Part shown: positions 9,827-12,800 of the stretch, piece by piece
Position numbering within the stretch: the stretch's first letter is position 1
Layout: the number at the start of each line of letters is the position of its first letter
Assembly: GCF_965204015.1 (NCBI RefSeq)
Contig: NZ_OZ241965.1
Location: forward strand, 53,782-117,781
Length of the DNA: 64,000 bases
Source: Candidatus Poriferisocius sp.
Lineage (GTDB): Bacteria; Actinomycetota; Acidimicrobiia; Acidimicrobiales; Bin134
Reading direction: 5' to 3'
Notes under the pieces: generated by a model
Database searches by the model: none
The model's input: the letters and a program-made list of their open reading frames with translations, nothing else
Told to the model about the DNA's origin: nothing
Made by a program: the position numbers and the translations under genes

Positions 9827-12800
9827 ATGAAGTTGCCTCAGAATGACTTTTGTACTGTAGGGTCACCGCGTGAGGTCTCCGTCCCCCCCCCCCCCCCCCC
9901 AATAACTGATCCAAGGACGAGACGCCACAGCCGAACATTCTCAATCCCCCTCCTGGTCCTCTGCCTGCTTGCCGCCGGACTCGTCACTGCTGCCACTTCG
10001 GCCAACGCCCTCCAAAACCAGCAGACCGAGTGGTACATCAACGACGATCCCTCTCTGTTGGGTCCGCAGGAGTCATGGTACGAAGGTGATGCGGGGCAAG
10101 GCTACGGAGCCAACAACTACCGGTGGACCTACGCCATTGGGGGTGAAGGGGGAATAGATAACTGGGCTATGTGGGATATGGGCGAACGCATTGGCAGGCA
10201 ACAAGTAGCTGTCTATATCCCCGGAACAAAAGCTACTGCCACTGTTACGTACATAGTTATATTTGACGGAATTGGACAGTACTCGAGGAAGATTAGTCAG
10301 AAGCTCAACGCAGGACGATGGATAAACCTAGGAACGTGGGACTTCAACGGTAAAGATGTCGAGATCGTTGTCTACGACAATGGGGCAGTCCAGCACTGGC
10401 GAACAGACGGACTAGAAAATAGCAGGATTGGGGTAGACGCAATGACGATGCGATGCGTCGCCAATTGCGCCACGACGACACCAACGCCAGACCCAACACC
10501 AGAGCCGACGCCGACGGTCCAACAACTCGGCAGAGTGACCGGCTTGGAATACAGCAGAAGCGACAGCCGGATCACGTGGAATCCCTTGAACGGCGCAACA
10601 GCCTACGACGTTGAATGGCGACAGGCTGGGGAAGATCATATTAGAAGGCCAGTGCTATGCGCTCGCGCTGATGGAACTTTGTTCGGGTCTCGGTGTGGGC
10701 TTCAGATCACCCCTGTTGTCTCAAAGGACCTTCAGTTCCGTGTTCGGGGGAAAAACAACAGCGGCACCAACTTGGGCCCTTGGACAAGCTGGGAGACGGT
10801 ACGCGGCGTCGATGAGCAACCGAAACCTCCACAAGGCCGCGCCACAGGACTGACCTATCACTCAGGACGAATCAACTGGCAGGGATTATCAGATGCCACG
10901 GCGTACGACGTGGAGTGGAGAAATGCAGGAGAACGAACAACGAGACAGGAGGTAACCTGCTCCTCTTCCTGCTACCTGAACATTACTCGTGCCCGACATT
11001 TGGAGTTGCGGTTTCGCGTAAGGGCCAAGAACAGCGGCGGTACTGGCCAATGGACAGGATGGACAATTTCACCTGCCGAAGTCACGTCTCCGAGCAGTCC
11101 GCTCAATCTTCAGGTTCGTGCTACTAAGGCGTCCGACGGGGGGAATCGTGTTGTTGCCTCGTGGTCGCCGCCTTCGAGCAACGGCGGATCGCCGATCACT
11201 GGCTACACCATTACGTTCTCCAGGCCGGGCAATAGCAATGTCGCAACCCGGACCCTTTCGGCCTCTCAGCGCTCCCTCGCCCTCATCAGAGCGTTCGACA
11301 ACACCACATACACCGTCACCGTCACAGCTACTAACGCCTTCGGAGCAAGCACCGCAGCCATAAACACCGTCACCACACCAAGACCTGCCGGTACTGTGCC
11401 GTCGGAGCCGCAGAATGTTCGGATTCGGGTCGTTCCGCAGTCGGACGGGACGAACAGCGTTATAGCGTCGTGGTCGCCCCCCTCAAACAATGGCGGCTCG
11501 CCGATCACCGGCTACAAGGTCACCATCTCCAGGCCAGGAAGCAACTTCGGCGGACCCCGCAATTTCTCCGCCAGCACGCGAACCCGGACAGTCAACAGAG
11601 CATACGACAACACCACGTACACAATTCAGGTCGCGGCACGAAACGCGATCGGCACAGGCTCCGAAGTCACCCGCTCAGTCACCACTCCAAGACCCTCCGG
11701 AACCGTTCCGTCGCCGCCGCGGAGCCTACAGGTCCGTACTGCCAAGTTGGGAGACGGGAGGAATCGCATTGTCGCAGCGTGGTCGCCGCCCTCGTACGAT
11801 GGCGGTTCGCCTATCACCGGTTACACCATCACCTTCTCCCGGCCGGGCAACAGCAACGTCGCAACCCGCAACCTACCGGCAACACAGCTCCACCTCGGCT
11901 TCAACGGAGCGCTCGACAACACCACCTACACCGCCATCGTTACCGCCACTAACGCCATCGGAACGAGCGCCGCAATCACCAACACCGTCACTACACGAGG
12001 ACCAACGTCAACGCCTAACGAGGATTCAAGAGAAATAGAGGATCTTACCTACACACATGGACCCTACCTTGAGCAAGGCCGATTTAGAGTCGTCAATTTG
12101 AGATGGGATGAGGTACCCGGTGCGACATCTTATGAATATAGGTGGAATTATCCTTATCCTCATATAAAGGGGGGCTCTGGTGATGCGGATGCATCATGCA
12201 CAAACAATATCTGTGCTGCGGAGTTCTGGCGCAACCCCGATAACCAGCAGGTGAAAATCGGCGTCCGAGCAAAAATAGGTACTCGGTTTGGTCCTTGGTC
12301 GTCATGGATAACTATTGGCAGCCAGTGCCCAAGCGGAGGAAAGTATGAGCATGTGGACGATAGAGGGGCCAATAATAAAAATGTAGCGTTGAAGACTTTT
12401 GCGTGGGATTTCGTGGATGAAACGAAGACGGTCACCAGCGAGATAGTGATCAAAGAGGGGTCAGAAGGAGGCCAAGCTAGGCATCACAATTCTCTCTCGC
12501 AAGATGGGTGTTCGTGGGTCATGAAGGGATCTAGAATCTTTGATGACGCTAAAGTCTATGAAAATGCATTACTCATCAACAACGCAACCGCAAAAGATAA
12601 TGCAAGGGTCTATGGAAATGCAATCGTGAATAATGCGACAGTCAGTGGAGATGCAAGAGTTTACGGCAGTGCGGAAATCTGGGATGGGGCGGTGATAAAG
12701 GGATCCGCCGATGTTTCAGGTACTTTCAAGCTCAAAGGAGGGGAAATTTCGGAGGGTAAATTCGATGGGTTCGAAGAAAATCTCCGGGCACTTGAGGACA

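Follow-up and report, generated by a model that had tools for sequence, protein, structure and literature searches.

Phase variation of surface proteins through homopolymer tracts is known from Neisseria, Haemophilus, Campylobacter, Bordetella, Cutibacterium acnes and Mycobacterium tuberculosis (PMC4746626, PMC10334774, PMC8355987, PMC1891110). Here, a comparable element is described in 64,000 nucleotides of DNA (hereafter the window; positions 53,782 to 117,781 of the forward strand of contig NZ_OZ241965.1, assembly GCF_965204015.1) from Candidatus Poriferisocius sp., a genus of sponge-symbiont Acidimicrobiia. The element is a run of 18 cytosines (C18) in the 5' coding region of a gene for a secreted fn3-repeat surface protein, and it is interpreted as a slipped-strand contingency (phase-variation) tract with a probability of about 0.7. 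The mechanism is already known; what is new is the sponge-mutualist host, the fn3 gene family and the consistent layout of a leaderless start followed by a tract. In full-text literature searches, neither phase variation nor contingency loci turned up for sponge symbionts or for Poriferisocius.

The opa genes of Neisseria form a multigene family of surface adhesins with pentamer repeats in the leader/signal-peptide region of mRNAs led by a Shine-Dalgarno (SD) sequence. The system described here is similar in its many paralogues, of which most are OFF at a given time, and in its proposed translational switching by frame, whereas it differs in having a mononucleotide run after a leaderless start in a mutualist instead of pentamers in a Gram-negative pathogen, and the proteins are non-homologous. 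In lic1 of Haemophilus influenzae, tetranucleotide repeats follow alternative start codons in different frames; by analogy, two candidate start codons of the window gene, ATG 9827 and GTG 9870, could make two of three phases productive, at different strengths. In porA and opc of Neisseria, poly-G/C tracts are located in the promoter spacer. The poly-C tract of Bordetella fim has the same position (PMC1891110), and further poly-G phase-variable genes are known in Neisseria, e.g., hmbR/hpuAB (PMC3786947, PMC5084427). The promoter-spacer systems resemble a sister subfamily of the family studied here (G8-G12, spacers of 15-19 nt), whereas the window tract lies 3' of the start codon.

In Cutibacterium (Propionibacterium) acnes, G/C tracts occur at surface-protein genes, such as those for dermatan-sulphate adhesins, and their lengths vary between strains (PMC4746626). 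Shared with the present case are the high-GC actinobacterial background and the location of G/C runs in the 5' untranslated region, the leaderless promoter spacer or the 5' coding sequence of putative surface proteins, but the C. acnes tracts are mostly 5-12 nt long, compared with 10-23 nt here, in one multigene family of an uncultivated symbiont. Homopolymer phase variation has also been described in M. tuberculosis, e.g., in glpK (PMC10334774; bioRxiv 10.1101/717272). This actinobacterium without MutS/L is comparable in its reversible frameshifts in short G/C runs, but these runs of about 7-9 nt lie inside metabolic or ESX genes and are not long 5' tracts of a surface-protein family. To our knowledge, Actinobacteria lack MutS/MutL, and repair by NucS leaves indels uncorrected.

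Poly-C tract and reading frames of the window gene

The open reading frame (ORF) 9827..13219, encoding 1130 aa, runs through the tract, and the exact position and length of C18 on the plus strand were confirmed as given in the preliminary description of the window (Table 1). C18 was the only homopolymer longer than 7 nt in the window, followed by four runs of 7. From the window composition (C 32.5%, G 31.8%), only 1.2e-4 G/C runs of at least 18 nt would be expected, in agreement with the earlier claim that the tract is longer than composition explains. For G/C runs of at least 8 nt, about 10 were expected and 1 was observed (C18 itself), indicating that the genome otherwise avoids homopolymers.

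The tract encodes five or six prolines whichever frame is read (six in ORF 9827..13219). Stop codons were found waiting in both alternative frames, as claimed: reading of the window gene in an off-frame ends at TAA 9903 or TGA 9907, at most 2-3 codons past the tract, and this is true for both candidate starts (9827 and 9870). There is also, as described earlier, no ATG, GTG or TTG in the ORF frame between the tract and the signal peptide, the next one being TTG 10058. The further claim that any slip of one nucleotide leads to termination is probably incorrect, since one extra C (C19) would join GTG 9870 to the ORF of 1.1 kaa (thousand amino acids).

Tract length in a sister strain

The window gene was also present in L001, an independent assembly (ENA ERZ23495295, scaffold of 402,881 bp). 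The identity between the window and L001 was 93-95% over the shared 23 kb, compared with 99.9% over the 4.1 kb from about 9650 to 13750, where only five substitutions and a 6-nt difference in the tract (C18 vs C12) were observed; one of the five substitutions changes GTG 9870 into ATG in L001. This segment extends from the promoter through the tract and the fn3 gene into the 5' part of ORF 13292..13909, and its flanks differ by 5-7%. Because the tract differs inside a near-identical segment, it has changed within what appears to be a very recently exchanged or swept cassette, and its length is not uniform among related genomes. In a genome of 64% GC, the gene drops from about 60% to 42-48% GC toward the 3' end, which makes the C-terminal module of this cassette look foreign.

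Recurrence of tracts in the gene family

Species-representative genomes were scanned with an alignment of the N-terminal domain of eight family members, which gave 24 loci in sponge-associated Acidimicrobiia metagenome-assembled genomes (MAGs); the window's genome is outside this set, and further loci were taken from contigs encoding database homologues. In JGI metagenomes, 10 loci of the family were detected; orthologues of the window gene were not among them, and no further alleles of the window tract were obtained.

In 132 kb of family loci, 13 of the 14 G/C runs of at least 8 nt were located no more than 250 nt 5' of the N-terminal domain. At 13 family loci, a TAGGGT box in the arrangement TANNNT-N6-ATG/GTG is followed, after 1-10 nt, by C10-C23. 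The leaderless form, with a TANNNT box 6-7 nt before ATG/GTG, is present at the window locus and at 13 paralogous tract loci, and the layout of poly-C after the start was found in three sequence-diverged lineages, with the window's lineage as a fourth. In every poly-C lineage, both off-frames close no more than 3-8 codons after the tract, and the main frame has no stop for at least 27 codons, reaching into an Arg-rich n-region and hydrophobic core.

In the sister subfamily, four loci (L006, L009, L018 and L020) carry G9-G12 inside the spacer of a TTGACA-N15-19-TACTTT promoter, and L008 carries G8 between the variant hexamers TTGCAA and TATGTT. This arrangement corresponds to the classic form of the device that acts on transcription. 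The window tract is not of the promoter-spacer type, being downstream of both the -10 box and the start codon. Tract-free relatives start conventionally, with an SD sequence, ATG and Lys/Arg ahead of the hydrophobic core.

Putative ON and OFF alleles

The loci L039 (GCA_022823925.1) and L042 (ENA KELL22-1_SAMN22237341), treated as one locus, share 99.8% identity over 7,834 nt, and the sole indel between them is one C of the tract. With C11, L039 reads MTPPPSVLLIRL followed by a stop and is out of frame, whereas L042, with C12, is in frame and encodes a 1644-aa protein beginning MTPPPQCAVDPF... (called as MTPPPQ...). A third locus, L043, is out of frame with C16 and has the same upstream genes as L039/L042 (an HTH_17 gene and a 252-aa ORF), which suggests that this locus was sampled a third time. 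All 15 substitutions between L039 and L042 are clustered in a single patch of 70 nt within an internal fn3 repeat (3406-3478 of L039), which suggests gene conversion between repeats.

A census of frames relative to the leaderless start was made over 14 distinct tract loci: 2 are in frame, 6 need one more C and 6 need one C fewer. The split of OFF alleles, 6 vs 6, over the two wrong frames fits random slippage and speaks against a programmed frameshift with its fixed offset; no fixed frame offset, as a programmed-frameshift or transcriptional-slippage site would have, was found among the homologues. When an ON-form N-terminus was used to search for proteins, no more than 8 short ones were retrieved, which gave no ON/OFF census, and a look-up of cluster members yielded an ON allele. 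Overall, the switch proposed in the preliminary description is well supported by tracts recurring in about 20 related genes, each time at the 5' end, by the C18/C12 difference and by the paralogue pair that differs in one C, whereas its start codon and its ON state are probably wrong.

Start codon of the window gene

In leaderless actinobacterial genes, as in mycobacteria, the -10 box ends 6-7 nt before the start codon, which is the 5' end of the transcript. Window positions 9857-9872 read GTAGGGT-CACCGC-GTG; the frame of GTG 9870 is open up to the tract, and the tract begins 20 nt 3' of the TAGGGT box, after GTG 9870. Of 26 sites in the window with the form TANNNT-N6/7-(A/G)TG, 14 open ORFs of at least 150 codons and match first codons of long ORFs; one example, GTAGGGTCGGGGC-ATG at 44518 (GTAGGGT-N6-RTG), precedes a bona fide long ORF. 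This frequency at long-ORF starts indicates that leaderless genes seem to be very common in this genome. The probability of a TANNNT-N6-RTG site within 60 nt of the tract by chance, estimated from sites that do not start genes, was about 0.005. Given the leaderless signature of the genome and the layout in the diverged paralogue lineages, GTG 9870, not ATG 9827, is most likely the start, being best supported by the sequence signals. At least 13 long ORFs of the window start exactly 6-7 nt after (G)TANNNT, e.g., at 20948, 34748 and 44518, and at 40069, 42778, 50572 and 34232 on the minus strand.

The preliminary description had listed ATG 9827 and TTG 9833 as the only canonical starts 5' of the tract, which is correct for the ORF frame but overlooked GTG 9870 in the +1 frame. 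The TAGGGT box is located 3' of ATG 9827, and neither an SD-like motif nor a TANNNT box precedes this ATG; the SD check of longest-ORF starts was crude, as many of those starts are probably not genuine. The leaderless TAGGGT-N6-GTG layout and the paralogues probably rule against ATG 9827 as the start. The non-canonical in-frame codons ATA 9902, ACG 9917, ATC 9944 and CTG 9953 were also considered as starts and rejected, none being properly spaced from the SD-like AAGGACGAG (9913-9921). In window 9913-9928 this SD-like AAGGACGAG is followed by CAC, where L002, a 45%-identical homologue, has GGAGAG-N5-ATG-AAG-TTC-AGG-ACT, and by this comparison AAGGACGAG may be left over from an ancestral SD-led start whose role passed to an upstream leaderless start with a tract.

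Predicted operation of the switch

Following these signals, we infer that transcription begins about 7 nt after the TAGGGT -10 box and gives a leaderless mRNA whose first codon, and thus the start codon in use, is GTG 9870. Ribosomes would translate MRSPS and then the poly-Pro tract. At C19 or C16, the product from GTG 9870 would be MRSPS-(P)n-ITDPRTRRHSRTF and would continue into the signal peptide; in general, lengths of 1 mod 3 (C16, C19, etc.) would lead through ITDPRTRRHSRTF and the signal peptide to the mature protein of about 1,070 aa. Wrong lengths would yield only a peptide of 8-14 residues ending, in the window, at TAA 9903 or TGA 9907, and from GTG 9870 the C18 tract gives MRSPSPPPPPQ before the stop. 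The assembled C18, previously taken as ON, is out of frame for GTG 9870, and C18 in the window and C12 in L001 are more likely both OFF, one C short of ON. Slipped-strand mispairing during replication would add or remove C's, so that cells of a lineage would toggle the protein at random. If ATG 9827 were transcribed from upstream, some expression could result, and two of the three frames could be productive. The six or seven N-terminal prolines would be expected to make translation EF-P-dependent.

Gene product, neighbourhood and further observations

The product is predicted to be secreted or surface-exposed, with a signal peptide and its ANA/LQ site, fn3 repeats and a beta-sandwich N-domain. 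The signal peptide of the window protein reads RTRRHSRTF-SIPLLVLCLLAAGLVTAATSANA/LQ, and homologues start at the equivalent point (MKFRTISIS...). The N-terminal domain of about 150 aa has a weak Golvesin_C match and is weakly CBM35-like. Searches of the window protein against NCBIfam and Pfam gave fn3 domains only, the Golvesin_C and YdcK-solenoid matches being weak and mostly sub-threshold. The AlphaFold model of the N-domain had a low pLDDT of 59, with weak matches to CBM35-type folds (E about 5e-3, TM about 0.4). A role as a glycan-binding adhesin would be a guess from this weak resemblance to a CBM35 jelly-roll.

The NCBI product WP_419846513.1 is 1053 aa long, the length expected if translation began at TTG 10058, which lies 3' of the signal peptide and within the conserved N-terminal domain, indicating that PGAP, the annotation pipeline, bypassed the tract. 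The relatives P0013 and P0135 are likewise annotated from TTG or as 'MNDNPS...', without a signal peptide. Tracts of this kind make gene callers mis-start such genes, and inventories of secreted proteins from these MAGs are biased.

Downstream of the gene, both the window (13930-17591) and L001 encode a second fn3 protein, followed by one with a CAP/SCP domain (YkwD-like). In the distant relative L002 a CAP-domain gene is located downstream too, and the second fn3 gene is not recorded there. The gene neighbourhood is partly conserved among the window, L001 and L002. A 21-nt tandem duplication (CGGGCCAAAGCCGCCGAGGCC) at window position 22710 is present in L001 and absent from the window.

Around the window tract, an imperfect inverted repeat (GGTCTCCGTCC / GGACGAGAC) occupies 9874-9884 and 9914-9922. 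RNA folding of 9870-10000 was no better than that of shuffled sequences (z-score +0.6), and this inverted repeat is not found in the paralogues. A scan of 9500-10200 against Rfam (E <= 1) gave zero matches.

Several other sequence features were noted in the family. In the core paralogues (L004, L011, L028 and others), a GAGCCGG...CCGGCTC inverted repeat and the G-rich GGGGGGTGGCGGGG are located about 25-55 nt after the tract, before the first TTG. L011 has C13 in a proline-rich interdomain linker (4682-4694), and the linker of L034 (2008-2059) has C21, C8 and C9 with a frameshift, where L032/L033, the same gene in other assemblies, use mixed Pro codons; these linker runs are either second slippage sites or assembly errors. 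The metagenome contig L030 opens with G16 and, immediately after it, TAGGTT (together positions 1-22) upstream of a family member whose orthologue L005/L029 is tract-free there; the L030 assembly broke at a promoter-proximal tract.

Table 1. Features of the window gene and tract lengths at paralogous poly-C loci
Feature or locus	Position	Strand	Description or tract length
TAGGGT, -10-like hexamer of TANNNT type	9858..9863	+	ends 6 nt before GTG 9870
GTG, likeliest leaderless start	9870..9872	+	ATG in L001; +1 frame relative to the assembled ORF
ATG, possible second entry point	9827..9829	+	in frame with the ORF at C18 (and C12 in L001)
C18 homopolymer, putative slippage-prone switch element	9883..9900	+	C12 at the equivalent site in L001
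TAA stop	9903..9905	+	closes the GTG-9870 frame at C18 and the ATG-9827 frame at C17
TGA stop, third frame	9907..9909	+	closes the ATG-9827 frame at C19
Signal-peptide coding region	9914..10009	+	Arg-rich n-region RTRRHSR, hydrophobic core FSIPLLVLCLLAAGLVTAA, cleavage motif ANA/LQ
Mature protein, about 1,070 aa	10010..13219	+	N-terminal beta-sandwich, fn3 repeats, YdcK-type beta-solenoid, low-GC C-terminal helical region
L011			C10
L039			C11
L042			C12
L041			C13
L014, L019, L026, L028			C14
L004			C15
L015 = L040, L043			C16
L007			C23

Discussion

Several results weigh against the interpretation of C18 as a contingency tract read from GTG 9870. The two known alleles of the window locus differ by 6 nt and are in the same frame, so that an ON/OFF polymorphism was not seen at this locus, and both C18 and C12 are in frame with ATG 9827, as the start codon of the preliminary description predicts. 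Only 2 of the 14 tract loci are ON, compared with one third expected, a difference that is not significant and that leaves room for another explanation. In the core paralogues, the variable columns over the 93 nt from the tract to the first TTG are distributed 9/11/10 by codon position, i.e., without bias, so that the substitutions provide no positive sign of translation in this stretch. Homopolymer lengths in assemblies are error-prone, so the C18 state is uncertain and the C11/C12 pair may be assembler ambiguity. A scan of 9600-10100 for sigma-70 consensus promoters found nothing, the E. coli consensus being unsuited to this phylum. Finally, in C. acnes the tract lengths track clades and show no rapid switching (PMC4746626).

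Among the other explanations, the one given in the preliminary description, with ATG 9827 as the sole start, C18 as the ON state and any slip of one nucleotide as OFF, is unlikely. Besides the agreement of ATG 9827 with the 1130-aa ORF in both assemblies, a terminator scan of 9600-10100 found none between the upstream MauE-like gene and 9827, and read-through transcription from that gene could cover this start. However, being in frame twice is weak evidence in a family where most assembled alleles are OFF, and the signals described above are lacking before ATG 9827, whereas the TAGGGT box precedes GTG/ATG 9870 by exactly the distance typical of leaderless genes, as at 13 paralogous loci and in many window genes.

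It is quite improbable that the tract belongs instead to a short leaderless leader ORF for a poly-proline peptide, with translation of the protein beginning farther 3' (from TTG in the paralogues and, in the window gene, from a non-canonical codon) and tract length tuning expression via EF-P-dependent stalling or RNA structure, not via frame. Such a leader is suggested by the peptide of 7-13 codons, MT(P)n..., ending at a conserved TGA or TAG in 12 of the 14 loci, by the stretch from tract to TTG without codon-position bias, and by the G-rich GGGGGGTGGCGGGG and the GAGCCGG...CCGGCTC inverted repeat ahead of the TTG. For the core paralogues this explanation is conceivable, but for the window gene it fails, because there is no ATG, GTG or TTG from the tract to the end of the signal peptide. 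In the paralogues, a TTG start would give a signal peptide without positive charge, whereas all tract-free relatives have K/R at that place and the main frame supplies WRGxR just upstream. Moreover, the in-frame alleles L026 and L042 exist and are called as full proteins, and no Rfam element was found in 9500-10200.

Less probable still is the absence of switching, with polymerase or ribosome slippage giving an in-frame product at every tract length (recoding, or leaky constitutive expression). Runs of 10-23 identical bases suffice for transcriptional slippage in other systems, and most assembled alleles here, although out of frame, retain an uninterrupted ORF of more than 1000 codons. Against this stand the distribution of OFF alleles over both wrong frames, where programmed frameshifting needs a fixed offset, and the occurrence of in-frame alleles as well. 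Slippage of this kind could also coexist with switching at a contingency tract and would then blur the switch.

That the tract is a sequencing or assembly artefact, or the gene a pseudogene, can practically be dismissed: homopolymers are error-prone and the NCBI pipeline avoided the tract (1053 aa from TTG 10058), but the independent assembly L001 has a C tract (C12) at the same site with identical flanks, tracts occur in many relatives, and the ORF of 1.1 kaa is uninterrupted, with 99.9% conservation between two strains that differ by 5-7% in the DNA around the 4.1-kb segment.

With C18 interpreted as a contingency tract, the family as a whole can be considered. Sponge-symbiont Acidimicrobiia show an enrichment in 'eukaryotic-like' proteins, fn3 proteins included, to which roles in recognising the host and in escaping digestion are attributed (PMC11706023). 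The chances are about even that these symbionts (Poriferisocius and relatives) run a multigene system of randomly switched, glycan-binding-like fn3 surface proteins, in which poly-C and poly-G tracts would be convergent devices and most copies would be silent. If true, no earlier system of contingency loci would have been described from a sponge mutualist, and it would suggest surface variation as a means to evade host phagocytosis, host recognition or phage. If the tracts switch, the symbionts within one sponge would be a mosaic of surface types, which would bear on the reading of symbiosis, phage pressure and metaproteomes.

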